Shown in pieces: positions 2,521-62,360 of a stretch of 64,000 bases of DNA. The position numbers and the translations under genes were made by a program. Below the pieces are notes generated by a model. The model searched no databases and was not told the origin of the DNA. It saw only the letters and a program-made list of their open reading frames with translations. Each line of letters begins with the position of its first letter. Positions within the stretch are counted from its first letter, which is position 1. Origin of the DNA: an uncultured Gammaproteobacteria bacterium. Its GTDB lineage: Bacteria > Patescibacteriota > Patescibacteriia > Magasanikbacterales > JBBTQS01. The stretch covers positions 310,359 through 374,358 of the forward strand of contig OZ246400.1 of the NCBI GenBank assembly GCA_965230935.1. The letters are read 5' to 3'.

Positions 2521-2526
2521 CTACAC

Positions 2527-3360: not shown

Positions 3361-3371
3361 TCACAGCAACC

Positions 3372-4411: not shown

Positions 4412-4539
4412 GCTAACTCCTCCTCAATCGTGCCTGTGTTACTTCTCGATAAAATCTAACAAACAATCCGAACCATGTCCAGAATCCAAAACACCGCCGG
4501 TTGGCAGTGCTTCGTGGTTGTTGTGTTTTGATGTGTGGC

Positions 4540-5010: not shown

Positions 5011-5131
5011 GTCCCCAGGATAAATCTGATCAGCGCACCTGTCAACGCGCTACCCTAGCGCATTTGGGCCGTACTGTCAAGATGACATTGACGTTGCCGC
5101 TCAATCAGGTACACTTCACTACATATAACGT

Positions 5132-10381: not shown

Positions 10382-10382
10382 A

Positions 10383-11120: not shown

Positions 11121-11179
11121 GTTCCTTAGGGTATCAGAAGCCGATATGTGGGTCAATGAAAACTGGAACAACGCTCATT

Positions 11180-48852: not shown

Positions 48853-49952
48853 GATCGTAGTAAAAGATCAAAATACAATTGTTCATATGCACGAACCATA
48901 TCTTCAATTGCAAAATGCTCATGAGCATGGGTGCGTGCATTTTGCCCAACCACTTGCGCATCTGATCTTCGCTCAATGACAAACTGCACCATCTGTGCCA
49001 GTGCTTCTGAATCCTCAGATGATACAAGATACCCAGTCCTGCCGTGCTCAATCAGTTCTGGAATCCCGCCGACACGAGTGGCTATTACTGGCATACCAGT
49101 GCTCATGGCTTCCATAATCACCAGTCCCAGTCCTTCCCAGCGAGAAGCCAAAACAAACACATCATGCTGTGCGTACAACTCTGGCATTTCATCGGTGGTT
49201 CCGTAAAGCTGTACTTTGTTGACCAACCCCAACAATCGAATCCGATCTTCAAGAATCGAAAGTAACGAACCATTTCCTACAATAGTAAGCGTCCATGGGA
49301 GATCACGGATTGCAGAGAGTGCACTGAGCAACACATCAAATCCTTTTTGCTCTTCAAGGCGCCCGACGCTCAATAATTTGACGTGTGGTGCATCAACCAA
49401 TGACAAACGAGATATCTGCGCAAATCTGGAAAGCTCGATACGATTTGGAATCACGACAATTTTTTTCGGATTCACCTTTTCGACTGTGGTTGCATACTCC
49501 GCAACTGCACGAGAAATCACGATGATCCGATCAGAAATTTTGGCTACCCAGCGCTTGAGGAAATGTTTAAACGATGATTCATCAAACCAGGTGTTATGTT
49601 CGGTCGAAACAATTACCGGCACGCGTGCAAAAAATGCAGCGATTTTCCCCCATACATCTGCGCCAAATAAGTGTGTATGCACGATATCTGGTCGTGCTTT
49701 TCGAAATGCTCGCCACAGCTTGATTGTTAAACGAAATCCGAAATCACCCATATTAGGCATATGAATCACCTTGACCCCGGCATCGCGAATCACGTGTTCA
49801 AACGGACCAAGCGCCACAACCGTGATAACTACCATGGCAAAACGCGACCGGTCATGATATTTTGCAATATCAGCCAACAATCGTTCAGCGCCACCAAAAC
49901 GCAACGTGGGAATAACGTGTACTACTTTGATTTTGATGTTGTTTTTTGACAT
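48849..49952 (-). CDS. GT4 glycosyltransferase
   Basis: WEGLGLVIMEAMSTGMPVIATRVGGIPELI. The internal Met (MSKNNIKIKVVHV) at 49952 is the likelier start. Confidence 0.65.
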   Translation of the reverse strand: MSKNNIKIKVVHVIPTLRFGGAERLLADIAKYHDRSRFAMVVITVVALGPFEHVIRDAGVKVIHMPNMGDFGFRLTIKLWRAFRKARPDIVHTHLFGADVWGKIAAFFARVPVIVSTEHNTWFDESSFKHFLKRWVAKISDRIIVISRAVAEYATTVEKVNPKKIVVIPNRIELSRFAQISRLSLVDAPHVKLLSVGRLEEQKGFDVLLSALSAIRDLPWTLTIVGNGSLLSILEDRIRLLGLVNKVQLYGTTDEMPELYAQHDVFVLASRWEGLGLVIMEAMSTGMPVIATRVGGIPELIEHGRTGYLVSSEDSEALAQMVQFVIERRSDAQVVGQNARTHAHEHFAIEDMVRAYEQLYFDLLLRS

Positions 49953-51424
49953 ACCAATACTTGTGCGGTAGCAATTGCTAATCCAATAGGCAACCACATC
50001 TTTGCGTTATAGTAAGACGTATTTAATAACTGATACACCATAGCACCTAAGACCATCACGATGAGCGCACCAAGCAATCGGCGATCATCCTGTTTTGTGA
50101 TCGTGCGATAAGAGCGTATAAGTGTTGCCATAATAGCCAACAACAATACCACCCATGCAAGTAAGCCGATCATTCCATTTTCTGCAATTACTTTTTGAAT
50201 CATGCCATGGGCATCAAGTGGATCACCGTACTCAATAGCAAAAATCCGAGTATCAGCCACGATCGGAATAAAGCTTCCTGGGCCATTGCCAATCCATGGA
50301 CTGCGTTTAAAATATTCCCAAGAAATCTCGGTCAGATCAAGTCGAGTACTAGTCGAGCCAGCAACCAAGCGACTTGATGAAATTGCCGTCATATAGATCA
50401 CTGCTGGCAAAAGCATGAGCAAAATAACCCCAGCAATTTTCCCGGCATGTTTACCAACTACTGATCGCTTGATCTGTACGCGATACAAATACATGAATCC
50501 CATAAGCTCAACTGCCAGTACAATCCAAGCGGTTCGTGCAAAAGTTAATAGCGCCACCAATGCAATTACTGCGGTAGCCAAAAAATACCATTTCTTTTTC
50601 CAGCTTGCTCGCTCATGATATACAAAGTACACCCCAATAGGAACCATCAACACTAACACTTCCGCTAAGAGATTGTGGTTGTAGCCAAGCGGTGCAAAAT
50701 TACCAATGGCAAATGGAGTGGCACGGTGCCAAAGTCCACCAAATGGACCAACAAAAATAAACGACACAGCTCCCATAAGCGCACTGAGTACGCCAGCAGC
50801 GAAAAACGAGCGCAAGGCACGCAACACCATCTTGCTGTTTTTAATAATACTATTTGGGAGTACCACAAACATGACATACATGAAGATGATTGGGCGCAAA
50901 ATAAACTTAACACCAATCAAGAAAAGCTCCTGATTGGCACCAAATAATGACAGTACATGCGTGAGTACCAACGCCACAAAAAACCAAAGCAAGGGCGTGC
51001 TGCGCATCAGTGAAACCTCACGACGGGGAAGCAACACCAGAATACGCAAAACCAAAGCAGCTAAGAGCACCAACGCGAAAAAATCAACAAATGGTGCGTC
51101 AACCGATGAAAGATATGGAATCCGTCGAGACCATTCATACGATCCAAAATTCACAATCAAGCCGGTGAATGGGGCAAAAAATGCCAACACATACAGACCA
51201 ATATCGAGTCGATAGGCAAAAAAAGCAATTGCTGCCAATGCTAAGAAAATTGCCAAGGGCAACCAACCGGAGAATATTGTGACAATCGCCGCAACGGCCA
51301 GTACGGAAAGCCCGAATAAAAAGGCGGTTTTCCGTTGTTCACCACCAACAATAACTACATCTGAAAAATCAAATGCATCGTCAAGTTGATGGTAGGAAAC
51401 ATCTGTTTTAATTACCCGTGCCAT
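49922..51424 (-). CDS. O-antigen ligase/polymerase-like (Wzy_C) membrane protein without TPR tail
   Basis: 500 aa, multi-TM, with TFARTAWIVL ... DAHGMIQKVIAENGMIG matching the Wzy_C-type loop. Confidence 0.55.
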   Translation of the reverse strand: MARVIKTDVSYHQLDDAFDFSDVVIVGGEQRKTAFLFGLSVLAVAAIVTIFSGWLPLAIFLALAAIAFFAYRLDIGLYVLAFFAPFTGLIVNFGSYEWSRRIPYLSSVDAPFVDFFALVLLAALVLRILVLLPRREVSLMRSTPLLWFFVALVLTHVLSLFGANQELFLIGVKFILRPIIFMYVMFVVLPNSIIKNSKMVLRALRSFFAAGVLSALMGAVSFIFVGPFGGLWHRATPFAIGNFAPLGYNHNLLAEVLVLMVPIGVYFVYHERASWKKKWYFLATAVIALVALLTFARTAWIVLAVELMGFMYLYRVQIKRSVVGKHAGKIAGVILLMLLPAVIYMTAISSSRLVAGSTSTRLDLTEISWEYFKRSPWIGNGPGSFIPIVADTRIFAIEYGDPLDAHGMIQKVIAENGMIGLLAWVVLLLAIMATLIRSYRTITKQDDRRLLGALIVMVLGAMVYQLLNTSYYNAKMWLPIGLAIATAQVLVCQKTTSKSK

Positions 51425-51633
51425 GGTCTGTTTTACTACACTGAAATAATTCCCATTCGTATGGGAAGTACCCCCAGTATACTATAAAAATCGCTCAAAA
51501 TACAGCAGAAAATACTGAAGGCCGGAGGGCGTAGCGAAGTTCATCGCGTTGCCCACCGGCCCCCGGTGTTGTTGTATGTCATGTACGACAGTAGGTGTGT
51601 CAGATCAGACGGACGATCCCCGCCCCAGCACCC

Positions 51634-53649
51634 TTACGGGCAGCAGGAGAGGTTGTAGCCGGAGTCCCCGTTCGTGACCGTGATGCAGCTCAGCGCGGCG
51701 CCACCCTGGGGGGTGACGATCAGGCTGGTGATCACATTGGTCTCGGACGGGTAGTAGGAGTTCGGAGCGAAGTTCTCCGTCTTGTAGGAAACCCACAACT
51801 CCATACAGGCCCCGGCCGGGGCGTCGAACATGCCGCTGAGCGAGGTGCCCAACAACTCGTTCTTGCCCCAGGTGTAGAGCGACTTGTCCCCGGCGTCACC
51901 ACCGGAGTCCTCGTCGTCCTTCCCGGACCAGTTCGTGCAACCGACGAGCGACGTCCAACCAGACGCCGCCGACGGCTCGACCTGCTCAGCATCCAGGCAC
52001 CACCAACCATACAAGGTCGCCCCGTACAGGTCGGTGTTGGCCTGGATGTCGGCGGTGTAGGTGACGACGCCCGAAGGCGGCGCCGGCGCCTGGCAGCTCC
52101 CATCCGGCTCGCAGGTGTACCCCGAGGGGCAACCCACCAACTCGCACGAGTCCTTGTGCACGCACTCGTAGCCGGCTGCAAGCGCCGGCTTCTCGACGCA
52201 CACGTGATTCGCTGCACAGGTGACGACCTTGAGACCGCCATCGAAGCACTGGCCACCCGAGCAGTACGGCAGGCTGCACGCCATGCCATCGCTGTCCGAG
52301 CAGTTCGCGTCGATCGCGCACTCCAGGAACTGGCACTGGCCGCCGAAGCAAGCCGCGCCACCGGAGCAATTCCCACAGTTTCCGCCGCACCCGTCGGCAC
52401 CGCACTCCTTCCCCCCGCAATCGGGGACGCACACCGGCGGCTTGGCCACGCACGTGTGCGTGGTCAGCTCGCACTCCTGGTCCGCGTTGCAGTGCGAGTT
52501 GGACTCGCACATGCCGGGCTTGAGGCTGTACTGACACCCGACCGAAGCCAGGCAGCTGTCGTTGGTCCAGGACTTGCCGTCGCTGCACGCGATCGGCGTG
52601 TACGTGCACGCCCACTCGCCGTCCACCATCTGACAGGTGTCCGACGTGCAGGTGTTGCTGTCGTCGCAGTCGGAACTGCTCGAGCACGCCGGGGGATCCG
52701 GCAACACGCACTGCTTCTCCACACACGGCTCCCCACCGCAGTCCGAGTTCTCCTCGCACTGCGGCTGCACGGCCAGGTCGACCTGGCACTTCCCGCCGGC
52801 GCAGAAGCCGACGGTCGTGGGGTCCCCGGCCGTGATGCACTCCTCGTCACTCGTGCACTCGGGCGGAGGAATCTCGCACGTGCCGGCCACGCAGACCGAC
52901 CCGGCGGCACACGTGCCGCACAGCACCGAAGTGCCGCAGTTGTTGAGATGCTCCCCACACTCCAGCCCGTTGCACGTCTGCACGACGCTCTCGGGCACGC
53001 AGGGCGTGTCGATGGGCGTGTGGACGCACCCCGTGGTGGGGTTGCAGGAGTCCTGGGTGTTCGAGTTCTGGTCGTCGCAGACGAGCGCCTCGAACTGGCA
53101 CCCGCCGCCGCTCACCGAGCAGGAGTCCGACGTGCAGGCATCGCCATCGTCGCACACGGTCACACTCCCCTGGCACGCGTTGGCGCCACAGGTGTCGTTC
53201 TCGGTGCACGGGTTCTCGTCGTCGCACGGCTTGGTATTGGGTGTGTACTCGCACACGCCCGCCACGCAGGCGTCGTCCGTGCAGAAGTTGCCATCATTGC
53301 AGTCCATCCCATCACAGGGATCGACCGGCTCAGCGCACGACCCGCCCTCACAGGCGGCACCACCCGGGCACACCGGCCCGCACTCGCCACCGCACCCATC
53401 GGCCCCGCACTCCTTGCCGTAGCAATCGGGAGTGCAGACGTCCGGCTCGTCGGTGTCGGGCGTGTCCGCATCCGGCTCGTCCGTATCCGGCTCGTCCACG
53501 TCGGGATCGCTCCCCGTGTCCGCATCCGGCTTCTCGGTGTCGGTCATCTGGACGTCGGCCACCTCGTCGGCCGGAACGTCACTCGGGTTACAACCACCTG
53601 CCAGCGCAAGCGCCAGCAGGACGAACGCAAAACGCGTGAGCTGCTTCAT
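51634..53649 (-). CDS. high-GC lipoprotein with Asp/Pro/Thr-rich linker and tandem cysteine-rich repeats (Myxococcota-type CxDxNxCTxDxC)
   Basis: Signal peptide plus lipobox MKQLTRFAFVLLALALAGGC. Repeats CDGMDCNDGNFCTDDAC, CDDENPCTENDTC, CDDGDACTSDSC, CDDQNSNTQDSC, CDDSNTCTSDTC. PDCxGKECGADGCGGxCGxC occurs twice (internal duplication). About 70% GC with GC3 near 90%. The antisense 709-aa ORF is judged spurious. Confidence 0.65.
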   Translation of the reverse strand: MKQLTRFAFVLLALALAGGCNPSDVPADEVADVQMTDTEKPDADTGSDPDVDEPDTDEPDADTPDTDEPDVCTPDCYGKECGADGCGGECGPVCPGGAACEGGSCAEPVDPCDGMDCNDGNFCTDDACVAGVCEYTPNTKPCDDENPCTENDTCGANACQGSVTVCDDGDACTSDSCSVSGGGCQFEALVCDDQNSNTQDSCNPTTGCVHTPIDTPCVPESVVQTCNGLECGEHLNNCGTSVLCGTCAAGSVCVAGTCEIPPPECTSDEECITAGDPTTVGFCAGGKCQVDLAVQPQCEENSDCGGEPCVEKQCVLPDPPACSSSSDCDDSNTCTSDTCQMVDGEWACTYTPIACSDGKSWTNDSCLASVGCQYSLKPGMCESNSHCNADQECELTTHTCVAKPPVCVPDCGGKECGADGCGGNCGNCSGGAACFGGQCQFLECAIDANCSDSDGMACSLPYCSGGQCFDGGLKVVTCAANHVCVEKPALAAGYECVHKDSCELVGCPSGYTCEPDGSCQAPAPPSGVVTYTADIQANTDLYGATLYGWWCLDAEQVEPSAASGWTSLVGCTNWSGKDDEDSGGDAGDKSLYTWGKNELLGTSLSGMFDAPAGACMELWVSYKTENFAPNSYYPSETNVITSLIVTPQGGAALSCITVTNGDSGYNLSCCP

Positions 53650-54161
53650 GGTCGTTTCTCCATACCATGCTGCTGTGGATATTCATGTCGACGCCTTGCC
53701 GACACTATCTCCACAATTCTTTAAACTGTCGATTGGTTCAGTTGTAATGATCATAATGCTCATTTCAACCGTCGCATACAATTATCCCTATTGGATTGCT
53801 GTACGCGACTGTCGAAAAAAGAAGCATGTACTTTGATCGTTCGGCTCAAGGTGCATTATTGAAGGAGGGCACAATAGTGTACCGAACCGAACGGTCACAA
53901 TACATGCTTGACGCAAAAAAAATGAGACCAAACCCCCTTCAATTTGGTTGTAAACTGGTACTACTGTGACGTTGGATAATAGCATAATCATTGCTTTCTG
54001 TCAACCCCTTAATTTAGGTAAAAGTATGATCTTGTATACCCAACACAACAAAAGCAAAATTTTGACTAAATTTAAATAAATTTCAAAGCCCACGGAGAAG
54101 TTCATCCTCGTGGGCTAAGAAGTTGTGTGTTGTGGTTTGATGCTGGCCGCTTACGCGACGA

Positions 54162-55412
54162 TCAGAATGCGGCGCCGCCGCCGAGCGCGCAGGCCCAGCC
54201 CCGCGACTCGTCACCCTGTACATTGGCCCGCCAAGACGGACCGCACACGAGCGCGAAATGCGGCCGAACTGCGTCCGTGACCTCACCCAGGTCGTAGGTC
54301 AGGCCGAACAACAGGTCCAGGTCGTGCCGATCGTAGGCGTCGAAGCTGCTCACGCGCGAGTTCAGGCTCATCCACTCGAACATGCCGCGAAAACGCAACT
54401 GCTCGAGCCAGAGCTTGAAATCGATGCCAAAGCCCAACGCGAACCGCGACGCGACGTTGGAGTCCCGGTCGATGCTCGGGGTGTTCTCCAGGTCGGGCTC
54501 GCCCCCCACGCCGAAGCGCGTGAGCACGAACGCGTCGAACACGCCGTTGAACAGGTTGGCGAACCGCAGCTCGAAGTCCAACGTGCCGGCACCGAGCAGG
54601 TCCTCCTCGCCCATCACGTCATCACCCGCAAAACCCCGCAGGTCAGCGCTCAGGCGCAGAACGAACCGCAACGCGAAGCGCTTGGAAAACTCGTCCAAAC
54701 GCATGTCGTGATCGTCGAGCCGACCTTCGATCCGGTCCAGACGAGGAACGACACCGTCGGTGTCACCGTCGGCGGGGTCGATCACCCCATCGCCGTCCAG
54801 GTCCACGCCGTCGAGACGTCGCTCGAGCACGCTCACCCGGCCGGTACGCTGATGATCCAACGCGTGAAGACGATCGTTCTGGTGCCGATCCAACTGCGCC
54901 TGCTCCCAATCCCGCTTGTGCTGCACGCACACGCTGGTGTCGTAGCTGACCACGACGTACCGCTGACCACGCGGGGCGTTGGTGCGCCCCTGAATGCAGG
55001 TCATGGCCTGCGCCGGCCAACTCAGGCTCTTGCGCTGCGCGTACACCGGTAGCGTGTCCCGGATCTTGGCGCACCGGCCGTTGGCCAGGTCACGCTGCCG
55101 GTCCAGGTTCCCCCGGTGCTCGCCGATGGAGTCGGTGAACCCCTGGGCACGAAAGCGCAGACACTGGTTGGGGCTGTGGTGCACCTCACGCGTCATGCGA
55201 TCGAGGAGCTTGACGGCGGCGGCAGCCGGCGGCCCACCCGGCGTCAAGCCAAGACGCTGGATGCCGTACCGGCCGAACTTGCCCACGTACGAGCCGTCCT
55301 CGGGCATATCCCAGCCCGTAAACGGGTTGCGGGACGCCTGGGCAGACGCCACAGAGGTGAAAAGACACGAAACGATCAAAGCGGCGAGAGCCGCGGCGAT
55401 CCGCTGCTGCAT
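54162..55412 (-). CDS. high-GC secreted OmpA-like domain protein with TSP3-type Ca-binding Asp repeats and beta-rich C-terminus ending in Phe (outer-membrane-protein-like)
   Basis: Signal peptide MQQRIAAALAALIVSCLFTSVASAQA. AQGFTDSIGEHRGNLDRQRDLANGRCAKIRDTL matches the OmpA-C peptidoglycan-binding motif (GxTDxxG..N..LSxRRAxxVxxxL). DLDGDGVIDPADGDTDGV is TSP3-like. C-terminal ...GGGAAF. Confidence 0.55.
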   Translation of the reverse strand: MQQRIAAALAALIVSCLFTSVASAQASRNPFTGWDMPEDGSYVGKFGRYGIQRLGLTPGGPPAAAAVKLLDRMTREVHHSPNQCLRFRAQGFTDSIGEHRGNLDRQRDLANGRCAKIRDTLPVYAQRKSLSWPAQAMTCIQGRTNAPRGQRYVVVSYDTSVCVQHKRDWEQAQLDRHQNDRLHALDHQRTGRVSVLERRLDGVDLDGDGVIDPADGDTDGVVPRLDRIEGRLDDHDMRLDEFSKRFALRFVLRLSADLRGFAGDDVMGEEDLLGAGTLDFELRFANLFNGVFDAFVLTRFGVGGEPDLENTPSIDRDSNVASRFALGFGIDFKLWLEQLRFRGMFEWMSLNSRVSSFDAYDRHDLDLLFGLTYDLGEVTDAVRPHFALVCGPSWRANVQGDESRGWACALGGGAAF

Positions 55413-55556
55413 GGAACTCTCCTATCACCGCCCTTAGCAAGGCGCGGTTATACACACGCCCAGAGGGCAGGCCAACAGGATCTCTTGATGTCGCTCGCTG
55501 CTCCATCTGCATCAATCCTGTGAATGAGCACGAATCAAATAGGTTATCCTACTGAT

Positions 55557-55601
55557 TGCGCAATGAATACTGTCCACTAGCATGAACCTCATTCATTGCG
55601 C
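55557..55601. promoter_or_regulatory. large inverted repeat TGCGCAATGAAT-N22-ATTCATTGCGC upstream of the OmpA-like gene
   Basis: 11/12-bp arms located 145-190 bp upstream of the start at 55412, in an AT-rich spacer. Confidence 0.35.
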
Positions 55602-55842
55602 TCAGTAGACGTATTTGTGATTTCACTCAGAAAATCCGCCTATTTTGAACAGTTCACCTTACCACAATCGCTTAATCTTGTCAAGAGAACAAATTATACT
55701 AAAAAAACCTTTAACTTACCTAAAATTAAACAAAATTCAAGAGAGCCCACACCTTGTATGATTCCGCGGTTAGCGGTACAAAATATGGGCCCGTCTCGGG
55801 TTGTTGTGTTGTGATGTGTGCGCCAGCTACGGCTCAGCCGGC

Positions 55843-57045
55843 TCAGCGACCGAAGATCGGCAACGGTGGCCGCCGGCGTAGTAGCCGTGACCCGTGCGCG
55901 AGAGCCGCTGGAGCCGCTTGTCGCCACCGCGAACGGAGCGACGGGCGAGCCCGACGAGCCGGCCGAGACCGACGCGGCGAGTAGCTGGACGTGTCCGCCT
56001 TGCACTGGTGGGTGCTGGTGTCGCACGTCTTGCCGCTGCCGCACTGCTCGTCCTTGTAGCAACCGCGCACGCACCGGTTGGGCGTCCCCGCCTTGCAGTA
56101 GGAAAGCCCGACGCAGTCCTCGTTCTGGGTGCACTCGTCCGCCTTCACGCACCGGCCCGTGCCCGCGATCGCCTCGCACGTCTCGTTGGAGCCGCACTGG
56201 GCGTCGGACGTGCACTCCTTGAGCGACACGCACTTGCCACGCACGCAGGTCTGATCCGGGGCGGCACACGGCGCCGCGTCCGAACAGGCGCCCGCACGCG
56301 AACTCCGACTGGTACGACGACCCGCCCGACGCGCACGACGCGCACGACGCGTGTCGGCCTGGCGGTACTTCCCCCAGCCGAGCCGCTCAGCGGCCGCCTC
56401 GAGGTAACCGATCTTGTCGTCCTCACTGGCGCCGGTCCGACCCGCGAGCGCGCGCTCCTGGGTCAGCGCCTGGTGGGCGTCGCGCTTGGCCTGCGGCCAG
56501 TAGCGGAAGCTCCCGTCGAACAGAACCACGTCCTCGAGCGTCTCGGCCAGCGTCACGAGCTGATCCACGCTGAACTTCGGAAGGTCGTCCTTGCTCGCCG
56601 CGGCGCCCCCGAAGGTGACGGCCGCCACAGCCTTACGGATCTCACGGTTCTGCACCTCGTCGCCCTCCCAGCGGGAGACGACGTTCTGCCGGAACCAGTC
56701 GAGCTTGGCGGTACGCGTGGACTCGGCGGTCTGCGCGTCGGCGATCGACTGCATGTTCCGCGCGCACGCCGTCGGATCGAAGTCCGGAGCGCAGCACTTG
56801 GGCACGCACGCACCGCCACCGGCGGGCGCGATCGCCCCACCGCCCGGACGTCCGGCCGGACCGCCACCCGGCACCTCGCACTTGGAAGTAACGGTGTTGC
56901 ACTTGGTCGCGCCGTTCACCGGCGCGGCCGCCGCGCACTGCGGGTCGGTCATGCATGGAGATCCGACATCGGCCATGGCCGCCGGGGACGCCAGCGCGAT
57001 GAGCGCGGCGACGAAAATCTTGGAAAAGGGCTGGTTGTTTCGCAT
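55843..57045 (-). CDS. high-GC secreted cysteine-rich protein with Arg-rich low-complexity segments
   Basis: Signal peptide MRNNQPFSKIFVAALIALASPAAMA. N- and C-terminal Cys-rich modules (CVRGKCVSLKECTSDAQCGSNETCEAIAGTGRCVKADECTQNEDC...). The RRARRARRAGRR and PRRSRPARRARP stretches may be real or local frame errors. The antisense 402-aa ORF is judged spurious. Confidence 0.5.
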   Translation of the reverse strand: MRNNQPFSKIFVAALIALASPAAMADVGSPCMTDPQCAAAAPVNGATKCNTVTSKCEVPGGGPAGRPGGGAIAPAGGGACVPKCCAPDFDPTACARNMQSIADAQTAESTRTAKLDWFRQNVVSRWEGDEVQNREIRKAVAAVTFGGAAASKDDLPKFSVDQLVTLAETLEDVVLFDGSFRYWPQAKRDAHQALTQERALAGRTGASEDDKIGYLEAAAERLGWGKYRQADTRRARRARRAGRRTSRSSRAGACSDAAPCAAPDQTCVRGKCVSLKECTSDAQCGSNETCEAIAGTGRCVKADECTQNEDCVGLSYCKAGTPNRCVRGCYKDEQCGSGKTCDTSTHQCKADTSSYSPRRSRPARRARPSLRSRWRQAAPAALAHGSRLLRRRPPLPIFGR

Positions 57046-57305
57046 GTTATTGCCCCCTCCTCGAGGCTCACCTGTTTTGCAGGCTTCTGGAAATGCGAAT
57101 AGAAACTACGGGAGCCATCCCTTAGTGTTGGGAAAAACCCCGGCGGCACAATCGGGATGATCCTCCCATAGTACTGTGTGCCTAGCCAACGACCTCATGT
57201 CGTCTGAGCGGTCCACGAGACCGCCTACGTACCGATAAATCGTCACGCGCCTTGAGGAAGACTGAGTAAACTTAGTTCCTCCTCAGGGATCGCGACAGAT
57301 CCAGT

Positions 57306-57338
57306 TCACTATAGTAACAGATGACGTTACCATAGTGA
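57306..57338. promoter_or_regulatory. inverted repeat TCACTATAGTAAC-N7-GTTACCATAGTGA (followed by TGACAA-gatt-TTGTCA)
   Basis: 12/13-bp arms located about 260 bp upstream of the 55843..57045 gene start, in the AT-rich junction region of the GC island. Confidence 0.35.
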
Positions 57339-57380
57339 CAAGATTTTGTCAAGTAAATGTATTTATTCACAAAATTTAAA

Positions 57381-57411
57381 AAATAGCTAAATTTAAGCTA
57401 TTTTACAAAAA
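57381..57411 (-). terminator. intrinsic terminator of the wzz-like gene (AATAGCTAAATTTAAGCTATT hairpin plus T-run on minus strand)
   Basis: Near-perfect hairpin about 25 nt downstream of the stop at 57433, followed on the minus strand by TTTTTT. Confidence 0.5.
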
Positions 57412-57432
57412 ACGACCTAATTTAGGGGTTAT

Positions 57433-58089
57433 TTAGGAATGCACACCAAACATCACATGGTCATTTTTCTTACCACGTGTACGAGATTCTTTGGCAAATA
57501 ATACGCGCAAAGAGGCTAAAATTAGCCCAAAAAGAAATCCAACAATCGCATTGACGATCAGATTTGGTTTTACTGGAAATCGAGAGGTTACTGGGGAATC
57601 CACTACTTTAAACCCGGTTTGCGGATTAACATAATTTTCTCCATTGGTAATCAAGGTGGTAATAACTGCCTGTGCAGTCAATTGTGCCTGTTGTGGATCC
57701 TCATGATAGGCGGTAATACTCAGTACTCCAGTCCCGGCATGAATCTGTGGATCGATCATCCGTTTCCAAAATCGACGACGTTGCCGCTCAGTTTCTGGAA
57801 AATCACTAGTTACGACTTGAGGTTCGATTGCCATTACTTCTGATAAGAACACACTGGTTTGTACAATTGTGGCAAGGTTCTCCCCGGTACGTTCTGCAGA
57901 CTTAATTACCGTGTACGGATCAATACCAAACCCCTGTCGCGGAATAATCAACACACTTCCGGTTGCGCTGTACTTAAGTGGAAACAACAAACTTAAGCCA
58001 ACAGCAAAAATTGCTACTACGATTCCTACACCAAACAAAAATTTGGAACGCTGGAGAAGAATCAGCAAATAGGATTGCTCAGTTGCCAT
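57433..58089 (-). CDS. polysaccharide chain-length determinant-like protein (Wzz/PCP family, short form)
   Basis: N-terminal TM (FGVGIVVAIFAVGLSLLFP) and C-terminal TM (IVNAIVGFLFGLILASL) bracket a soluble domain. N-terminal LLQRSK...PLKYSATGSVLI is typical of Wzz. Confidence 0.55.
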   Translation of the reverse strand: MATEQSYLLILLQRSKFLFGVGIVVAIFAVGLSLLFPLKYSATGSVLIIPRQGFGIDPYTVIKSAERTGENLATIVQTSVFLSEVMAIEPQVVTSDFPETERQRRRFWKRMIDPQIHAGTGVLSITAYHEDPQQAQLTAQAVITTLITNGENYVNPQTGFKVVDSPVTSRFPVKPNLIVNAIVGFLFGLILASLRVLFAKESRTRGKKNDHVMFGVHS

Positions 58090-58097
58090 AGTAAAAA

Positions 58098-59177
58098 TTA
58101 TTCAAGAGCCAAAAGTGGCATATCGACAATGGCCTCACCATCATCGCGCATGACTTGTAATTGTACCGTAGTACCAACCGGGTACGAAAACAACAAACTA
58201 CTTAGTGTTTGATCGTAGCTTAACGGAATACCGTTTACTGCAGTGATCACATCACCAACTTGCAGTGCAGCAGGTGCTGACGTTGATTGAGAGACGCGCA
58301 TGACCATGGCACCCTGTTCAGGAACTGTTGGGTCAATACTTGCTAAACCTGCAAGAGAAATATAGCTAAACGGTAATTGAGCACGACGAACTTGCTGTGT
58401 GGCAAATAAATCGTCAAGTACCGGGGTTACAAATGATGCAGGAGTAAACTGAATATGATTCTCCTGAGCATCTACACCAGTAACAATGCCGAGTACTTGC
58501 GCATCTTTGGTAAGTAGTGGCATGCCCAATGCAACATCGTGATATGCCGGACTTGCAAGACCAACTTCATCATACACCTGTGCGTCTTGCACCAAACAAT
58601 CAGTACTTGCACAATCATAATGATGTACTGCATCTATAATGATAGCACGAAGTGGACCACTTGTGGTAGGAATAGCCACCACTTCACTACGGGTGTTCTC
58701 ATCCACACGCGCAAATGCAAGTGCAAGAAGAGACACATCTTCAAGTTTAGCAAACACCAAGTTACTTGCCTGATCACGGACAATGGCAGTGACTGGAGCG
58801 AATACTCCTTGACCTAATCCAATAACTGCTTGTGTATTTGCAATGACATCCTGGGTGCTTACTACCCATCCATCATGCGTAAGCGCAATGGCATAGCCGA
58901 GCTGGTCACGTTGCGTGATGTAAAAGTTTGCCAAGGTATCGTTCGTCTTGGTGCGTGACGATGGATATACTGGCAAGACACCTCCAAGCACTTTGCGATC
59001 AATGCGACTTATGGTAGTGGTAGCATCTTGGGGTACAAAAATAGGGGTAGAACGTTCAACAACGGTGATACCAAAATCAAATAGTTTTCCAGAAAGCAAG
59101 CCGCCAATAAGTCCAAGCCCAAGTGCGAGGGCAATAAAAAATACTGCAAGAATAATACGTTTCATATTAAGCACCAT
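58098..59177 (-). CDS. HtrA-like trypsin-fold/PDZ protein, catalytic Ser apparently not conserved
   Basis: N-terminal TM. LTHDGWVVST (His region). ALGMPLLTKDAQVLGIVTG where GNSGGPL is expected. C-terminal PDZ (LQVGDVITAVNGIPL). Confidence 0.45.
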   Translation of the reverse strand: MVLNMKRIILAVFFIALALGLGLIGGLLSGKLFDFGITVVERSTPIFVPQDATTTISRIDRKVLGGVLPVYPSSRTKTNDTLANFYITQRDQLGYAIALTHDGWVVSTQDVIANTQAVIGLGQGVFAPVTAIVRDQASNLVFAKLEDVSLLALAFARVDENTRSEVVAIPTTSGPLRAIIIDAVHHYDCASTDCLVQDAQVYDEVGLASPAYHDVALGMPLLTKDAQVLGIVTGVDAQENHIQFTPASFVTPVLDDLFATQQVRRAQLPFSYISLAGLASIDPTVPEQGAMVMRVSQSTSAPAALQVGDVITAVNGIPLSYDQTLSSLLFSYPVGTTVQLQVMRDDGEAIVDMPLLALE

Positions 59178-59249
59178 AGTCGTTTCACGAGCAATATCAC
59201 GTGGTGGCAAATGAGGGGAATGTGAATCCTGTGAGTCCATAGAGTTGTG

Positions 59250-60038
59250 TTATAGCCAGCGCACTAACAAAAGAATAAGTAATAAAAGTACGCCGGCAAC
59301 ACCATATACTATTTTGCGTATTTTGTCACGACGCGGTTCTCCAGCAACTTGTTCGAGCAGCGGTAGCGCTAATGCAAATGTCATTGCAGGAAAAAGCGAA
59401 ACAACACCATACCCAAATGGAAGCAGAAGGGTTGCCCACGCAACTTCAATTACAACCAAGGTAAGAATCGCGCACGCGATAATACGATGCGCAGTGCGTT
59501 TTTCTACAAATCGTAAGTAAGCATACACTGAACTCAATACTTCGATTCCCATACCCACTAACACCCAAATCACATTCAGTTGTGCAAAAACCACCAAACC
59601 AAACAATGACGCACCTGCGAGATACAGTGCATAGACTTGCACCATCCGGGTCGTTCGCAACAACACTTCGCGCGAACGCTGCGCCGGCACCATCAAAAAC
59701 CGCAATCCATGATAATCATAGATCAACAACACAATACTAGAGAACATCACAATTACAATATGCGCCAACACATGCTCGACCAAAAATATCACTCCTCCAG
59801 CACCAAACAATAACCATGCACTATGCAAGAGTAAAAAAATACGCACCGGACTTTTCCCCGCCTGACGAGTATGGTACGTCAATCCAATACCATGAATCAA
59901 AACACTCAAGATAAGAAGTATTACTCCCCAACTAGGAATCACCCGAATAAAGATCAACAGGAGTGCACTGACTCCTGCTAAGATACTTGAGATGCGAAGT
60001 GCACTACTCATAAGAAAGTGATGAGACCACCAAATCAA
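59250..60038 (-). CDS. hypothetical polytopic membrane protein
   Basis: 262 aa with about 7 hydrophobic helices. No family motif recognised. Confidence 0.4.
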   Translation of the reverse strand: MIWWSHHFLMSSALRISSILAGVSALLLIFIRVIPSWGVILLILSVLIHGIGLTYHTRQAGKSPVRIFLLLHSAWLLFGAGGVIFLVEHVLAHIVIVMFSSIVLLIYDYHGLRFLMVPAQRSREVLLRTTRMVQVYALYLAGASLFGLVVFAQLNVIWVLVGMGIEVLSSVYAYLRFVEKRTAHRIIACAILTLVVIEVAWATLLLPFGYGVVSLFPAMTFALALPLLEQVAGEPRRDKIRKIVYGVAGVLLLLILLLVRWL

Positions 60039-60450
60039 GCTCCTCCATATGTGATCCGCGCATGTCGATGTTTCCGTTTTCTAACTGGTTAATGGTTTGG
60101 GAAAGTTCAAGCACCAAACTTAAATGAATGCTTTGCATACGCTCGGGAACCAGTGTCTGCAATAATGCGTTATGCAACTCTTGCGCAAGTGCAAGCCACT
60201 GAGCATCTTGGTCTTCAGCTTCGAGTGTTTGGAGCGCTTCGACATACGTTTGCACACGTGTGCGCACATCTTGTGCATATTCTTGTTCCAGATTGTTTGG
60301 CGCAAATTCAATCGACGTTACGGTACGATTCTCATCCTCCACTGGATTGTTCACCTGTACATATACAACAAGCACCAACAAAATTGTAGTGGTCACTAAT
60401 GCGATCCACAAAAACATGGGACGAGAACGACGATGAGAACTTCCAAACAT
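60004..60450 (-). CDS. hypothetical membrane-anchored protein
   Basis: 148 aa, one N-terminal TM (LWIALVTTTILLVLVVYV), then an acidic helical domain. Confidence 0.35.
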   Translation of the reverse strand: MFGSSHRRSRPMFLWIALVTTTILLVLVVYVQVNNPVEDENRTVTSIEFAPNNLEQEYAQDVRTRVQTYVEALQTLEAEDQDAQWLALAQELHNALLQTLVPERMQSIHLSLVLELSQTINQLENGNIDMRGSHMEELDLVVSSLSYE

Positions 60451-60452
60451 AC

Positions 60453-61475
60453 TTATTCGTGTTTACTTGAAAATACTTCTTTAAGAAAGACCGTAAGCGC
60501 TGTTGCAATCGGAATTGCCAAAAGTGCCCCCAAAACACCTGCCAGCTTTGCACCAATTAAAATCGAAATAATACTGACCAATGGATTAAGTCCAACTGCT
60601 TTTTGCATGACCTTTGGTACCAGCAAGTTGTTTTCAATGACTTGCATGATCCAATAGAAGATCAGCACGATAAGTGCGCGAATTGGAGAATCAGTGAACG
60701 CAAAAAAGATTGCCGGGATAGCCGCGAGCACCGGGCCAACATAAGGGATGATTTCGAATAGCCCGGCGATAAGTGCTAACACCAATGCATACTGCACGCC
60801 AATAATAGTCAGACCAACGTACGCTAACACACCAATAATCAAACTGAGCATGAGTTGTCCACGCAACCAATGCCCGAGCATGGTTTTGATCTTCGACAAA
60901 ATACGTGTGACGTATGGTTGGTATTGATCAGGAACCACTTGGCGCATGGCACGCTTAAGTGCACTTTCTTGCACTACCATGTAAAACGTCAATACCAGCA
61001 CTAACAAGAATGAAAATACATTGCCGAAAAATCCAGTGATGGTTGAGAAAACATTCGTGAAGGTTCCTTGCAATCCTGATGAGAGTGAGCTGATACTGGA
61101 CTGAATCTCATTTGAGATACCATATTGTTGTGAAAATTGCTTGAGCGCTTCAACACTTGATGCTACTCGATCCCACTGTGAACTGAGTCCTTCGGCAAGT
61201 GCTTTTGATTCTGTAACTACTGGTGGCACCAACAAAATCCCAACCAACACAAATAACCCAATAAAAATGACATAGGTCGCTAGTACGGAGATCGCCCGAG
61301 GGATTTTGCGACGTTCACACCAATCGGCCAATGGATCAATAAGTGAGGCAAAAATAAGTGAGACAAATACCAAAAGAATGATATCTCGGATCATGACCAA
61401 GAACCACAAAAACAGTAGTGTGAATACGATCTTAACAATCGTCTTTGTACTGATCGTAATGGATTGTTCTTTCAT
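60453..61475 (-). CDS. AI-2E family transporter (PerM/YhhT, UPF0118)
   Basis: 340 aa with 8 TM helices. ...GLFEIIPYVGPVLAAIPAIFFAF... is characteristic of AI-2E/UPF0118 proteins. Confidence 0.65.
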   Translation of the reverse strand: MKEQSITISTKTIVKIVFTLLFLWFLVMIRDIILLVFVSLIFASLIDPLADWCERRKIPRAISVLATYVIFIGLFVLVGILLVPPVVTESKALAEGLSSQWDRVASSVEALKQFSQQYGISNEIQSSISSLSSGLQGTFTNVFSTITGFFGNVFSFLLVLVLTFYMVVQESALKRAMRQVVPDQYQPYVTRILSKIKTMLGHWLRGQLMLSLIIGVLAYVGLTIIGVQYALVLALIAGLFEIIPYVGPVLAAIPAIFFAFTDSPIRALIVLIFYWIMQVIENNLLVPKVMQKAVGLNPLVSIISILIGAKLAGVLGALLAIPIATALTVFLKEVFSSKHE

Positions 61476-62349: not shown

Positions 62350-62360
62350 GAAATAAAAAA

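Follow-up and report, generated by a model that had tools for sequence, protein, structure and literature searches.

Results

The window, that is the whole 64,000-nucleotide stretch of DNA analysed here, carries three consecutive genes (A, B and C) lying in a polysaccharide locus, together with the following flanking and related features.

49922-51424, minus strand: Wzy_C-domain membrane protein of the O-antigen polymerase/ligase type (PF04932, E 7e-13), downstream anchor; GC 0.44
51634-53649, minus strand: gene A, a 671-aa lipoprotein matching PF00526; GC 0.67, GC3 0.88
54162-55412, minus strand: gene B, a predicted exported 416-aa protein; GC 0.66, GC3 0.84
55843-57045, minus strand: gene C, a predicted exported 400-aa protein with a signal-peptide-like N-terminus; GC 0.70, GC3 0.84
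57433-58089, minus strand: wzz-like membrane protein of the chain-length-determinant type, upstream anchor; GC 0.43, GC3 0.36
51595-53724, plus strand: spurious 709-aa ORF antisense to gene A, called instead of A in the ENA and NCBI records
1786-5049: milder GC-rich single-gene units, ORFs 1837-2520 (plus), 2671-3360 (plus), 4049-4411 (minus) and 4540-5010 (minus); GC3 0.65-0.77

The wzy gene is the first of a wzy-GT4-GT4-GHL15 operon, and the wzz-like protein matches GNVR weakly, at an E value (0.002) that misses the Pfam cut-off. A sliding window delimits three blocks of GC 0.60-0.75 at 51.55-53.65, 54.15-55.45 and 55.8-57.05 kb, with dips of 0.34-0.42 between them, the remainder of the window lying at 0.43-0.47. 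Per ORF, GC and GC3 are 0.669 and 0.881 (A), 0.659 and 0.837 (B) and 0.703 and 0.843 (C), compared with 0.43-0.45 and 0.32-0.42 in the neighbours wzy, GT4, wzz and pdz, which confirms the compositional anomaly noticed in a previous sequence-only reading of this DNA. That reading placed the spacers at 38-40% GC; the measured values are 41-46% within the module and 51% between A and wzy. The change at the ORF edges, described as abrupt, is real but does not coincide strictly with the ORFs: as a mean of ten such genes, GC climbs from 0.37 to 0.55 over the final 300 nt of the leader and drops to 0.30 within 150 nt past the stop. Similarly, codon usage said to be almost exclusively G/C-ending is strongly biased, but this wording is slightly overstated, since A-ending codons make up 1-3% of the total and T-ending codons 11-15%. 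At four-fold sites the module has A 0.025, T 0.135, C 0.387 and G 0.454 (host: A 0.315, T 0.35, C 0.178, G 0.157), A-ending codons being avoided five times more strongly than T-ending ones. The genes for L20, L35 and IF3 have GC3 of 0.35-0.40. The four ORFs at 1786-5049 (GC 0.55-0.60) have no family in Pfam or PHROG; these units carry the same CA-tract/hairpin 3' module as A, B and C (motif copies at 2524-2537, plus, and 4517-4530, minus), the modules behind 2520 and 3360 being nearly identical to each other.

The long spurious antisense ORFs already suspected are present, namely 709 aa, 402 aa (55894-57102, plus strand) and one of 264 aa. The first has per-position GC of 0.86/0.56/0.57, the mirror image of a real gene, and the antisense frames are broken in a related genome (L011, below). 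It is these antisense ORFs that are actually called as genes in the public records.

All three proteins open with a basic residue and then a strongly hydrophobic core of 10 residues (mean Kyte-Doolittle value 2.95 or higher); they look exported, in line with the signal peptides proposed for them. Gene A has a lipoprotein-type N-terminus (...LALAGGC), an acidic Pro/Asp-rich linker, Dicty_CTDC Cys-rich repeats (12% Cys; 70.7 bits to PF00526, Pfam cut-off 27) and a Trp/Tyr-rich C-terminal domain. Its 932 homologues are distant, with identities of about 30%, and its relatives outside the CPR are mostly Myxococcota/Deltaproteobacteria MAG proteins, in keeping with its earlier description as a Cys-rich-repeat lipoprotein with Myxococcota-type kin. 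No match was found in the NCBIfam library, which presumably includes TIGR02232, the Myxococcus Cys-rich-repeat model. A high-GC, non-CPR best match had been expected; the top single BLAST match of A is its syntenic CPR orthologue (L011 4135-5997, 117 bits), ahead of every non-CPR match.

The protein of gene B has four conserved Cys in its N-terminal domain, a stretch rich in Asp (DxDGDG) and a C-terminal half ending in ...GGGAAF, so that the C-terminal Phe reported earlier is indeed there; the OmpA_C and TSP3 domains assigned to it were not matched in Pfam, even at E<=1. It belongs to no Pfam or NCBIfam family, and AlphaFold, run on the single sequence, gave a model too poor to use (pLDDT 34). 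The protein of gene C is rich in Cys in its N- and C-terminal parts and helical in between, and its tail is rich in Arg and Pro; it has only sub-threshold matches (DUF5885, eggshell Cys-rich module). Neither B nor C has a homologue among 5.8 billion or 1.84 billion proteins, and on sequence comparison both appear to be clade-restricted families.

The order pdz-wzz-C-B-A-wzy is repeated in two further Patescibacteria genomes, L011 (pdz, wzz, ORFs of 275, 381 and 620 aa, wzy) and L089 (pdz, wzz, ORFs of 252, 477 and 561 aa, wzy, GT4, GT4); in L010 an A-like gene precedes wzy at a contig end. Flanking proteins are 45-62% identical between genomes; the wzz-like protein is 61% identical to L011 541-1179 and 53% to L089 9998-10609, and Wzy 58% and 45%, respectively. 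The three module genes are fast-evolving. The orthologues of A (also L010 376-2166 and L089 13735-15420) share 25-38% identity, and those of B 23-26%: B is collinear with L011 2594-3739 (23% identity, pairwise E 7e-6), with the four Cys and the terminal Phe kept, and its counterpart L089 11914-13347 terminates in ...ALLGVRF. Gene C is barely alignable, and its putative counterparts (L011 1474-2301, L089 10826-11584) are proposed from position and general build, their similarity being marginal (E 0.025-0.05). In L007 (Ca. Azambacteria), GHL15-GT4-GT4-Wzy genes lie next to four Dicty_CTDC ORFs of 58-66% GC, with spacers of 36-51% GC. Among species representatives, a GC-rich segment at least 0.12 over the locus median and within 3 kb upstream of wzy was present in 21 of 37 Patescibacteria loci versus 4 of 34 control regions (Fisher p = 7e-5). 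The host had been judged CPR-like, and the labels of these relatives and a 931-kb NCBI contig agree. The records of the three closest relatives (L009-L011) are titled 'uncultured Gammaproteobacteria bacterium', which conflicts with all others being labelled Patescibacteria.

In every genome the module exceeds its own flanks by about 0.3-0.45 in GC3: 0.84-0.88 versus 0.32-0.42 in the window, 0.49-0.57 versus 0.17-0.28 in L011 and 0.82-0.84 versus 0.46-0.55 in L089. Module GC follows host GC with r = 0.81, a value inflated by how the ORFs were selected. Where residues of wzz, wzy, GT4 and GHL15 are conserved, four-fold-site agreement is 0.19-0.39 (0.24-0.30 expected from composition only); between genomes, the flanking genes are saturated at their synonymous sites.

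The spacers contain the following regulatory features, all on the minus strand.

57324-57352: predicted promoter of C; TTGACA, 17 nt, TAACGT, with TG two bases ahead of the second hexamer
57046-57323: leader of C, about 280 nt; GC 0.53-0.55
55735-55813: 3' module of C; CA tract CACAACACAACAAC, long hairpin, then TTGAATTTTGTTTAATTTTAGG
55656-55684: predicted promoter of B; TTGACA, 17 nt, TAAGGT, with TGTGG ahead
55413-55655: leader of B, about 240 nt; hairpin with 17-bp arms at 55550-55607
54087-54139: 3' module of B; CA tract CAAACCACAACACACAAC, hairpin AGCCCACGAGGATGAACTTCTCCGTGGGCT, then TTGAAATTTATTTAAATTTAG
53976-54004: predicted promoter of A; TTGACA, 17 nt, TATTAT, TG extension, 11 of 12 consensus positions
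53814-53916: structured leader RNA of A; 36-bp hairpin, 10-nt apical loop with invariant CCCUCCUUC
51515-51580: 3' module of A; CA tract CATACAACAACACC, hairpin with loop GATGAACTTC, then the wzy upstream region

This regulatory DNA is better conserved than ORFs A, B and C. Both L011 and L089 keep a CTTGACAAAA...GTG.TA block upstream of C and CTTGACA...TTGTG.TAA at the promoter of B, while L010 and L011 keep CTTGACAAAA...TATGCTA.TAT at that of A. In the leader of C, a TTGTGCCGYCG block is conserved and the ribosome-binding site is GGAGG; in that of B, the conserved block is TGCCCTCTGGGC, about 50 nt upstream of the AGGAGAG ribosome-binding site. C' and B' of L011 are trailed by 3' modules of the same type as that of C, and the hairpin loop GATGAACTTC is common to the modules of B and A. 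The leader RNA of A, located upstream of A in four genomes, has 36 pairs, seven with compensatory changes among three sequences (RNAalifold), and its CCCUCCUUC loop is anti-Shine-Dalgarno-like. Its covariance model (R1) scores 103-113 bits in the sense and 29-42 bits in the antisense direction, and finds an independent match at L089 13525-13626 (57 bits, E 1e-13); no Rfam family matches it. Judged from consensus or conservation, A, B and C are predicted to be separate transcription units, each of which would run from a near-consensus sigma-70-type promoter through a 240-330-nt leader and a GC3-rich ORF with an export signal to a CA-rich tract and hairpin terminator.

Discussion

Based on the synteny and composition presented here, C-B-A is a resident, vertically conserved three-gene module, not an imported one, in a cell-surface glycan locus of Patescibacteria (CPR), with wzz on one side and the wzy-GT4-GT4-GHL15 operon on the other; as a whole, we regard this explanation as probable. 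Since synonymous sites in the flanks are saturated, the excess in GC is an equilibrium that is specific to these genes and maintained, not the leftover of a donor genome, and since related species carry the same gene set, a gene-specific force holds its composition apart from that of the genome. The bias follows the transcription unit, is strand-specific in its avoidance of A-ending codons and is not common to ribosomal-protein genes; these three observations, the codon asymmetry among them, point to selection acting on the mRNA or on its codons, which we propose tentatively, giving it somewhat less than even chances. Such selection might favour a long-lived, RNase-resistant mRNA or, in cells poor in ribosomes, keep the translation of exported proteins under control. 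A similar picture could arise from GC-biased gene conversion or from a mutational bias coupled to transcription.

For gene C, it is also possible that the slot holds cassettes swapped for unrelated genes at the same position. Very recent gene-by-gene acquisition had been one of three origins suggested from the composition of the ORFs and their host-like spacers. Against such an import, the junctions recur in sibling genomes (wzz-C-B-A-wzy in L011 and L089, partly in L010), A has its top match in the CPR, B and C lack database homologues, and comparable GC3-rich ORFs occur elsewhere in the window. The module has no viral, plasmid or PHROG relatives, no integrase or transposase is among the called genes of the window at 39.9-64 kb, and no tRNA lies nearby; the host-like spacers are explained as the host's own regulatory DNA. 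An assembly or binning chimera is not supported, given junctions 100% identical across independent assemblies of several sequencing runs (Logan ERR2281801, L002, 52612-60719; MEGAHIT ERR2281804 and ERR2281805; L004, 56533-58296; L003 and L005), a 185-kb ENA contig and the 931,061-bp NCBI contig, on which the host proteins lie together with the ORF antisense to A. Nor is an engineered or mosaic sequence supported, the DNA coming from several environmental metagenomes. Of the sequence-only reading, the anomaly, the exported products and the candidate novel envelope module, previously undescribed, thus stand, whereas all three of its proposed origins fall on its own terms for refuting them.

We infer that A, B and C form part of the cell envelope or coat and are made along with the polysaccharide of the locus. 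The repeats of A are akin to Dictyostelium spore-coat repeats, which in Dictyostelium cross-link extracellular coats; these C4C modules form disulfides within and between chains in a cellulosic layer (PMC3068167). In this view, A would be a membrane-anchored, disulfide-rich repeat protein, B may be rich in beta structure, its C-terminal Phe being conserved, and the basic tail of C could bind an anionic polymer. A tiny CPR genome carries genes far richer in G+C than itself, yet these are neither foreign DNA nor an assembly error.

Three GC-rich genes on the minus strand of a surface-glycan locus

In a sliding-window profile the GC content of the window lies at 0.43-0.47 nearly everywhere, the exception being the stretch from 51.55 to 57.05 kb, where three blocks of 0.60-0.75 GC are separated by dips of 0.34-0.42. 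These blocks coincide with three minus-strand ORFs, A, B and C, arranged in the order pdz-wzz-C-B-A-wzy within a surface-glycan locus that also comprises, besides wzz and the gene of a Wzy_C protein, genes for two GT4 glycosyltransferases and a GHL15/FG-GAP protein:

51634-53649, minus strand, ORF A (671 aa; GC 0.669, GC3 0.881)
54162-55412, minus strand, ORF B (416 aa; GC 0.659, GC3 0.837)
55843-57045, minus strand, ORF C (400 aa; GC 0.703, GC3 0.843)

The compositional anomaly noticed from the sequence alone is thus confirmed, with GC 0.66-0.70 and GC3 0.84-0.88 in the three ORFs against GC 0.43-0.45 and GC3 0.32-0.42 in the neighbouring wzy, GT4 (two genes), wzz and pdz. A-ending codons amount to 1-3% in A, B and C, and in gene A all 17 lysines are encoded by AAG and all 41 glutamates by GAG. 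The four spacers have 0.41-0.51 GC, near the host value and above the 38-40% initially estimated. The coding strand of the three genes is the minus strand: their codon positions follow the order GC3 > GC1 > GC2 typical of real genes, protein A matches the Pfam family Dicty_CTDC (PF00526; 70.7 bits for a cut-off of 27, over three stretches), and all three proteins have signal-peptide-like N-termini, as had been proposed. Along a unit, GC rises from 0.37 to 0.55 across the final 300 nt of the leader, stays at 0.6-0.7 within the ORF, the initial 30-60 nt of which are less GC-rich than the remainder, and drops to 0.30 within 150 nt past the stop codon.

A second group of four GC-rich single-gene units, milder in their bias (GC 0.55-0.60, GC3 0.65-0.77) and separated by host-like dips, was observed at 1786-5049 of the window:

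1837-2520, plus strand, GC-rich ORF
2671-3360, plus strand, GC-rich ORF
4049-4411, minus strand, GC-rich ORF
4540-5010, minus strand, GC-rich ORF

Three of these units are followed by a CA-rich tract and a hairpin (2524-2575, 3365-3420 and 4470-4530), and searches of Pfam (relaxed thresholds), NCBIfam and PHROGs assigned no family to any of the four ORFs. At least one product, that of 2671-3360, is devoid of a signal peptide; the GC-rich class is thus not restricted to exported proteins.

Continuity of the junctions and wrong-strand annotation

Public records searched with wzz and wzy contained an ENA contig of 185 kb as well as a number of short contigs assembled from further runs of the project, one being a Logan assembly; over the junctions, every one of these is 100% identical to the window. 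The alignments of three contigs of the same project are as follows:

Window 52612-60719, contig L002, 100% identical
Window 56533-58296, contig L004, 100% identical
Window 57197-59069, contig L003, 100% identical

Two assemblers and at least four runs reproduce the junctions at 100% identity, and on an NCBI contig of 931,061 bp the antisense ORF of A is recorded along with the host proteins. The project contigs L002-L005 end within or at the edge of the island (52612, 56533, 57197 and 57289), which could be due to a GC-dependent drop in coverage or to strain-level variation.

Exact look-ups of the A, B and C sequences in public records gave no match, because these records call antisense ORFs instead: the ENA and NCBI gene calls in the region are antisense ORFs of 709, 364, 264 and 147 aa. 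Long antisense ORFs, which the sequence-only reading had pointed out, are indeed present opposite each gene:

51595-53724, plus strand, antisense ORF opposite A (709 aa, called publicly)
54258-55052, plus strand, antisense ORF opposite B (264 aa)
55894-57102, plus strand, antisense ORF opposite C (402 aa by ORF scan)

The real A, B and C are therefore missing from protein collections, which helps to explain the orphan look of B and C, and wrong-strand calling probably hides related genes in other MAGs of the candidate phyla radiation (CPR).

The same module in other Patescibacteria

In the closest relative, L011 (wzz, wzy and GHL15 respectively 61%, 58% and 62% identical to those of the window), we found pdz, wzz, C' (275 aa, exported, with an Arg/Pro-rich tail), B' (381 aa, exported, ending in ...GIINF), A' (620 aa, a Dicty_CTDC lipoprotein) and wzy, in that order. 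A metagenome scan with a wzz alignment yielded L089, from Hainich groundwater (an 881-kb contig according to its record name), which repeats the order with proteins of 252 aa, 477 aa (B'', ending in ...LLGVRF) and 561 aa (A''), and the locus L010, at the end of a contig, has an A-like gene followed by wzy. The same arrangement in related genomes, suggested beforehand as a check, is thus found as the three-gene order in L011 and L089 and as A-wzy in L010. The GC contrast accompanies the gene order:

GC3 of the module and of its flanks in three genomes
Window: module 0.84-0.88, flanks 0.32-0.42
L011: module 0.49-0.57, flanks 0.17-0.28
L089: module 0.82-0.84, flanks 0.46-0.55

Two further genomes extend the picture. 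In L007, a MAG of Ca. Azambacteria, GHL15-GT4-GT4-Wzy genes adjoin four Dicty_CTDC ORFs (GC3 0.70-0.85) and two more ORFs; these ORFs have 58-70% GC, the spacers 36-51% and the host genes 47-52%. L008 (OZ246405.1; 1.23 Mb, 38% GC) carries a gene for a Dicty_CTDC lipoprotein at 10001-12010, between rpoC and yebC/ruvC, with GC3 0.74 against 0.20-0.27 in its neighbours; lysine is encoded there by 67 AAG and 7 AAA codons, as compared with 24 AAG and 94 AAA codons in rpoC. A GC shift limited to the ORF thus also occurs away from the wzy locus.

When GTDB species representatives were scanned with a GHL15 alignment, 80 loci were obtained, nearly all labelled Patescibacteria (Falkow-, Kuenen-, Magasanik-, Uhr-, Azam-, Kerfeld- and Komeilibacteria). 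With a GC-rich segment defined as lying at least 0.12 above the locus median and within 3 kb of wzy, such a segment occurs upstream of wzy in 21 of the 37 loci with usable upstream sequence and in 4 of 34 control regions (Fisher p = 7e-5). The GC-rich ORFs of this survey, which vary between genomes from 1 to 6 in number and also in kind, mostly encode Cys-rich proteins with a signal peptide or of lipoprotein type. Iterative HMM searches of the 80 Patescibacteria loci detected no further B- or C-type proteins. Island GC in the surveyed loci rises with that of the host and exceeds it by about 0.17 (r = 0.81, a value inflated by the selection of ORFs). L009, L010, L011 and about 35 further loci are titled 'uncultured Gammaproteobacteria bacterium' yet carry the Patescibacteria-type locus, with GHL15 proteins up to 67% identical to that of the window; such titles are probably placeholders or wrong taxon labels from a bulk submission.

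An old module that evolves faster than its surroundings

Among all database matches and all ORFs of the loci, the top single BLAST match of A is A' of L011 (117 bits, collinear from the N-terminus). B and B' are likewise collinear, with 23% identity, a pairwise E-value of 7e-6, and four Cys residues and the terminal Phe conserved. The C-type proteins have only marginal similarity (E 0.025-0.05), with a common position and build. Between genomes, the flanking proteins are 45-62% identical, A 25-38% and B 23-26%. Judged from these alignments, the module is an old one and changes at two to three times the rate of the genes around it; such fast evolution of A, B and C would fit exposed proteins.

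At residues of wzz, wzy, GT4 and GHL15 conserved between genomes, four-fold sites agree at a frequency of 0.19-0.39, and composition alone predicts 0.24-0.30; agreement close to this expectation indicates that synonymous sites are saturated. A donor signature could not have survived over such a divergence, and each lineage must hold these ORFs at its own equilibrium. Moreover, since the module keeps its GC3 0.3-0.45 above that of the flanks although synonymous sites are saturated, a force specific to these genes must be at work. The compositional island is therefore both vertical and maintained.

Promoters, leaders and 3' modules

A sigma-70-type promoter is predicted upstream of each of the three genes. 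That of A reads TTGACA, 17 nt, TATTAT, with a TG extension (11 of 12 positions matching), and in front of all three genes the block CTTGACAAAA...TGTG.TAA is shared with L011 and with either L089 or L010. Each promoter is followed by a leader of 240-330 nt. The leader of A contains a 36-bp hairpin whose 10-nt apical loop includes an invariant CCCUCCUUC, and compensatory changes were found in seven pairs among three sequences. R1, a covariance model of this leader, scores 103-113 bits on the sense strand versus 29-42 bits on the antisense strand and also detects a copy ahead of A'' in L089 (57 bits, E 1e-13); it recovers the hairpin in the four closest genomes and nowhere in the wider set of loci. 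Rfam 15 has no leader family at gathering scores in the window, and its only match in 51300-57600 is a chance miRNA (E 0.22).

The loop of the A leader is complementary to a Shine-Dalgarno sequence, and control of translation by pairing of this loop with the ribosome-binding site would be a reasonable reading of the complementarity. The B leaders have a similar block, GCCCUCU (GCCUCCU in L089), 25-50 nt upstream of the ribosome-binding site, which is possibly a second candidate anti-Shine-Dalgarno element besides that of the A leader. A long hairpin with 17-nt arms was also noted in the B leader (55550-55607, minus strand).

On its 3' side each ORF has a tract rich in CA, CACAACACAACAAC or a variant of it, together with a predicted hairpin terminator, and L011 has the same type. 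The idea that the CA-rich motif is a recombination site was set aside in favour of a simpler one, a partly bidirectional family of terminators, since on the opposite strand the motif forms a G/U-rich tail behind the hairpin, and a convergent host NUDIX gene shares one of the copies. Within a genome the 3' modules can be about 85-90% identical while the ORFs before them are unrelated (2524-2575 and 3365-3420 of the window), and in L011 those after C' (2302-2385) and B' (3740-3825) are likewise near-identical; this suggests duplication or conversion of intergenic modules. On comparative evidence, the spacers are host regulatory DNA under constraint. This settles a puzzle of the sequence-only reading, in which host-like spacers between foreign-looking ORFs were hard to understand.

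The encoded proteins

Protein A is a lipoprotein whose N-terminus (...LALAGGC) is followed by an acidic Pro/Asp-rich linker, the Cys-rich Dicty_CTDC repeats and a Trp/Tyr-rich C-terminal domain without detectable relatives beyond the clade. The search for homologues gave 932 distant relatives, about 30% identical and over the repeats only; those with a name are mostly MAG proteins of Myxococcota/Deltaproteobacteria, and one is from the CPR (Ca. Azambacteria). As a single query against GTDB genomes, A found no match. NCBIfam at E<=1 gave no family for A, B or C, and this library presumably includes the Myxococcus repeat model TIGR02232. The expectation of Myxococcota-type relatives thus held for the named non-CPR relatives of A, and failed in that the best match of A is the syntenic gene of L011 and that B and C have no homologues.

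A is a genuine Dicty_CTDC protein. It resembles the other members of the family (Dictyostelium spore-coat and matrix proteins, avian eggshell-membrane CREMP, Myxococcota lipoproteins) in its Pfam match, its 12% Cys and its export, and differs from them in the low identity confined to the repeats, in its own C-terminal domain and in having no NCBIfam match. In the cellulosic spore coat, a polysaccharide coat, C4C modules of the Dicty type make disulfides within and between chains and thereby act as cross-links (PMC3068167); the gene for A likewise lies in a polysaccharide locus. From this location and from the coat disulfides of C4C modules, A, B and C are best read as putative proteins of an envelope or coat that would be produced along with the polysaccharide.

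Among 5.8 billion clustered proteins neither B nor C has a homologue, and an exhaustive HMMER search of 1.84 billion representatives found none for B. Nothing was found for either in Pfam (relaxed thresholds), NCBIfam or PHROGs, nor relatives in the PDB, and the alignment of the B family had no match in JGI metagenomes. A, B and C had no match in IMG/VR and the island DNA none among plasmids; the searches of PHROGs, IMG/VR and plasmids thus related the module to no phage family, viral contig or plasmid. The AlphaFold model computed from the B sequence alone had a pLDDT of 34 and was discarded.

B had been described as an OmpA-C plus TSP3 protein. This description was not upheld: B is like OmpA-family proteins and small beta-barrel OMPs in its signal peptide, a motif resembling the OmpA_C core (GFTDSIGEHRGN...LANGRCA), an Asp-rich DxDGDG and a terminal Phe, but these are short motifs only, and Pfam at E<=1 has no OmpA (PF00691), TSP_3 (PF02412) or OMP family for it, with only EF-hand_5 appearing, at E 0.31. 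B-family profiles against the PDB at E<=10 hit no OmpA, Pal or MotB chain, and their matches are at chance level (e.g. AlkL, E 1.4). The C-terminal Phe itself is real and is kept in the counterparts (B ...GGGAAF, B' ...LRGIINF, B'' ...ALLGVRF), all three having the aromatic end of a C-terminal beta-signal. The phylum Patescibacteria is generally considered to be monoderm and to have no outer membrane. An OMP-like terminal Phe was also observed in unrelated GC-rich exported proteins that other Patescibacteria encode in the slot preceding wzy:

1952-2923 of L024, slot upstream of wzy, protein ending in ...RF
2369-3496 of L050, slot upstream of wzy, protein ending in ...RFRF
164-1183 of L079, slot upstream of wzy, protein ending in ...GVLF
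435-1187 of L073, slot upstream of wzy, protein ending in ...CLSF

In the equivalent slot of L054, a different GC-rich protein does have TSP_3 (E 8e-13).

Origin and maintenance of the GC bias

We consider it slightly more likely than not that Patescibacteria keep a distinct 'GC-recoded' gene class. Its members would be self-contained units with their own conserved regulatory RNAs (for instance the leader hairpin with a CCUCC loop), coding for fast-evolving exported or envelope proteins; their GC3 of 0.5-0.9 would be actively held against the AT pressure of the genome by a gene-specific force, either selection on transcript or codons or targeted biased repair or conversion; and they would be largely absent from protein databases since gene callers misread their strand. 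Selection at the level of the transcript or of codons is, as a class of explanation, a serious but tentative candidate for this force. It is favoured because the bias follows the transcription unit, because it is strand-specific, with A 0.025 versus T 0.135 at four-fold sites of the module and 0.315 versus 0.35 in host genes (A is likewise below T in L008, L011 and L054), and because it differs from what highly expressed genes usually show. The genes for L20, L35 and IF3 have a host-like GC3 of 0.35-0.40, which led us to reject an ordinary codon bias linked to expression as the cause. Such selection could keep the ORFs GC-rich if, for example, it favoured a long-lived, RNase-resistant mRNA with a stabilising hairpin at the 5' end and a terminator at the 3' end, or the deliberate use of codons rare in the host for proteins that are exported and rich in disulfides.

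Some of these features have a parallel in Gram-positive S-layer genes beside slg clusters, such as sgsE/slg of Geobacillus stearothermophilus, which have strong promoters and long structured leaders that stabilise the mRNA. The module likewise adjoins wzz, Wzy_C, two GT4 and GHL15 genes and has near-consensus promoters, leaders of comparable build with a very stable hairpin, and strong terminators. According to Pfam, however, none of the three proteins has an S-layer or SLH domain, and we know of no description of a radical GC3 shift in S-layer genes.

The main rival of selection on the transcript or codons is GC-biased gene conversion, in which the resident ORFs are recombination hot spots where alleles of surface proteins are swapped between strains, with the conserved spacers and flanks as anchors. 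Divergence of the ORFs two to three times that of the flanks, conserved spacers and 3' modules that are near-identical within a genome (2524 and 3365 in the window; after C' and B' in L011), suggestive of cassette-to-cassette conversion, all agree with this scheme, as does the breaking of short contigs from other runs inside the island, which could reflect strain heterogeneity. The vls locus of Borrelia, a recombining locus for antigenic variation of a surface protein, has a GC content well above that of its AT-rich genome, and like it the module consists of fast-evolving surface lipoprotein genes more GC-rich than the genome. Lassalle et al. are said to have linked recombination to GC3 in bacteria in 2015. 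We nevertheless hold conversion to be unlikely. It is strand-symmetric, whereas on the sense strand the avoidance of A-ending codons is about five times as strong as that of T-ending codons; the shift needed is +0.3 to +0.5 in GC3; the leaders and promoters of the same tracts remain AT-rich; and a repeat search found no long repeats or silent copies that could serve as donors. Recombination-associated GC shifts reported so far are far smaller than +0.3 to +0.5 in GC3. The module also departs from vls in that three unrelated genes are biased, strand-specifically and at synonymous sites, and the only internal repeats in 51400-57480 are short and weakly similar, not a vls-type array of silent cassettes.

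A second alternative takes the slots between wzz and wzy as cassette sites into which unrelated GC-rich genes are swapped from a Patescibacteria pool, so that the genes in different genomes are analogous and not orthologous. The GC-rich ORFs do vary in number (1 to 6) and kind, the C-type proteins are barely alignable, every unit comes with a promoter of its own and with a family-like hairpin module on its 3' side, and the same 3' module flanks the unrelated GC-rich ORFs at 1786-5049. As in integron cassettes, ORF-sized units in series are each followed by a family-like imperfect hairpin (the 3' hairpins of the module were compared among themselves). This alternative appears decidedly unlikely to us, since three genomes share collinear homologues of A and B in an unchanged order and the leader RNA stays with A, no recombinase gene lies nearby among the called genes, and the GC-richness of the shared pool is left unexplained. 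Unlike in integrons, each unit has its own conserved promoter and long leader, the units are syntenic across genomes and the hairpins are terminator-like and partly bidirectional; no integron integrase is present among the called genes of window 39.9-64 kb. By these features the module does not qualify as an integron array, a vls-type locus or a recognisable S-layer gene.

An ancient transfer of Dicty_CTDC from a high-GC lineage into the CPR, followed by slow amelioration, would make the GC content a relic. The family is far more abundant in high-GC lineages, and the GC3 values of the A orthologues by genome (0.57, 0.65, 0.83 and 0.88) can be read as stages of decay. This is very improbable, however, since the flanks are fully saturated over the same divergence and a relic should have equilibrated. 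In addition, the Dicty_CTDC gene of L008 is Lys/Asn-rich with GC1 0.43 and GC2 0.47 yet GC3 0.74 (host GC3 0.20-0.27), a codon-position pattern that is the reverse of the order expected from amelioration, and B, C and the unrelated ORFs at 1786-5049 are biased too, without high-GC homologues.

A recent gene-by-gene acquisition from a high-GC diderm donor (e.g. Myxococcota), with un-ameliorated GC3, had been among the first proposals. It could point to the Dicty_CTDC repeats of A and the predominance of Myxococcota/Deltaproteobacteria MAG proteins among its named non-CPR relatives, to a GC3 of 0.84-0.88 with 1-3% of A-ending codons, and to the OMP-like Phe at the end of B. Such codon usage resembles that of genomes of about 70% GC. 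The module further shares with acquired genomic islands its compositional contrast, its accessory-looking secreted proteins and its place in a polysaccharide locus, a type that is often strain-variable. Nonetheless, recent acquisition is contradicted by the synteny and GC contrast conserved in L011 and L089 despite saturated flanks, and we regard it as extremely improbable: A matches its syntenic CPR counterpart best, non-CPR proteins being about 30% identical over the repeats only, B and C (two of the three genes) are without donor homologues in the protein collections searched, leader RNA and promoters beside the ORFs are conserved between genomes, and island GC shifts with host GC. Unlike in an acquired island, the contrast is limited to single transcription units between conserved host regulatory DNA. 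Precomputed Pfam matches of the called genes in window 39.9-64 kb include no integrase or transposase, the island has no flanking direct repeats, and the only tRNA-like gene is the tmRNA gene at 61962. In its distribution, mobility genes and donor homologues the module is thus not that of an acquired island. The tmRNA gene (61962-62350, plus strand; Rfam RF00023, 124.7 bits) encodes the tag peptide ANVYSRVKGAIAQAFSTPSFAPVVA, and in L001 smpB lies nearby.

Finally, an assembly or binning chimera, with high-GC reads of another organism in a CPR contig, was also put forward at first and has the extreme compositional jumps and the short contigs ending in or at the edge of the island in its favour, but is practically impossible given junctions identical in independent assemblies, a 931-kb contig carrying both parts and an architecture that recurs in unrelated studies (Hainich, L089; an Azambacteria MAG from NC groundwater, L007; many GTDB representatives).

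Significance

Our literature search found no description of an ORF-restricted, conserved elevation of GC3 in CPR genomes, which is no proof of absence. Three aspects of the module are noteworthy: its composition is at a gene-specific equilibrium, its genes are systematically annotated on the wrong strand, and its leader RNA is new. Deviant GC content and codon usage are the standard signature of transfer or contamination; here they mark vertically conserved genes. Composition-based filtering would wrongly remove or mislabel such genes, and MAG curation could deem them chimeras. Finding the force that holds their composition, be it the stability of the mRNA, the control of translation, or a bias in conversion or repair, would bear on the old question of what sets intragenomic base composition in bacteria. 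For the uncultivated episymbiotic bacteria that carry it, the module supplies candidate surface or attachment proteins together with a new conserved leader RNA.
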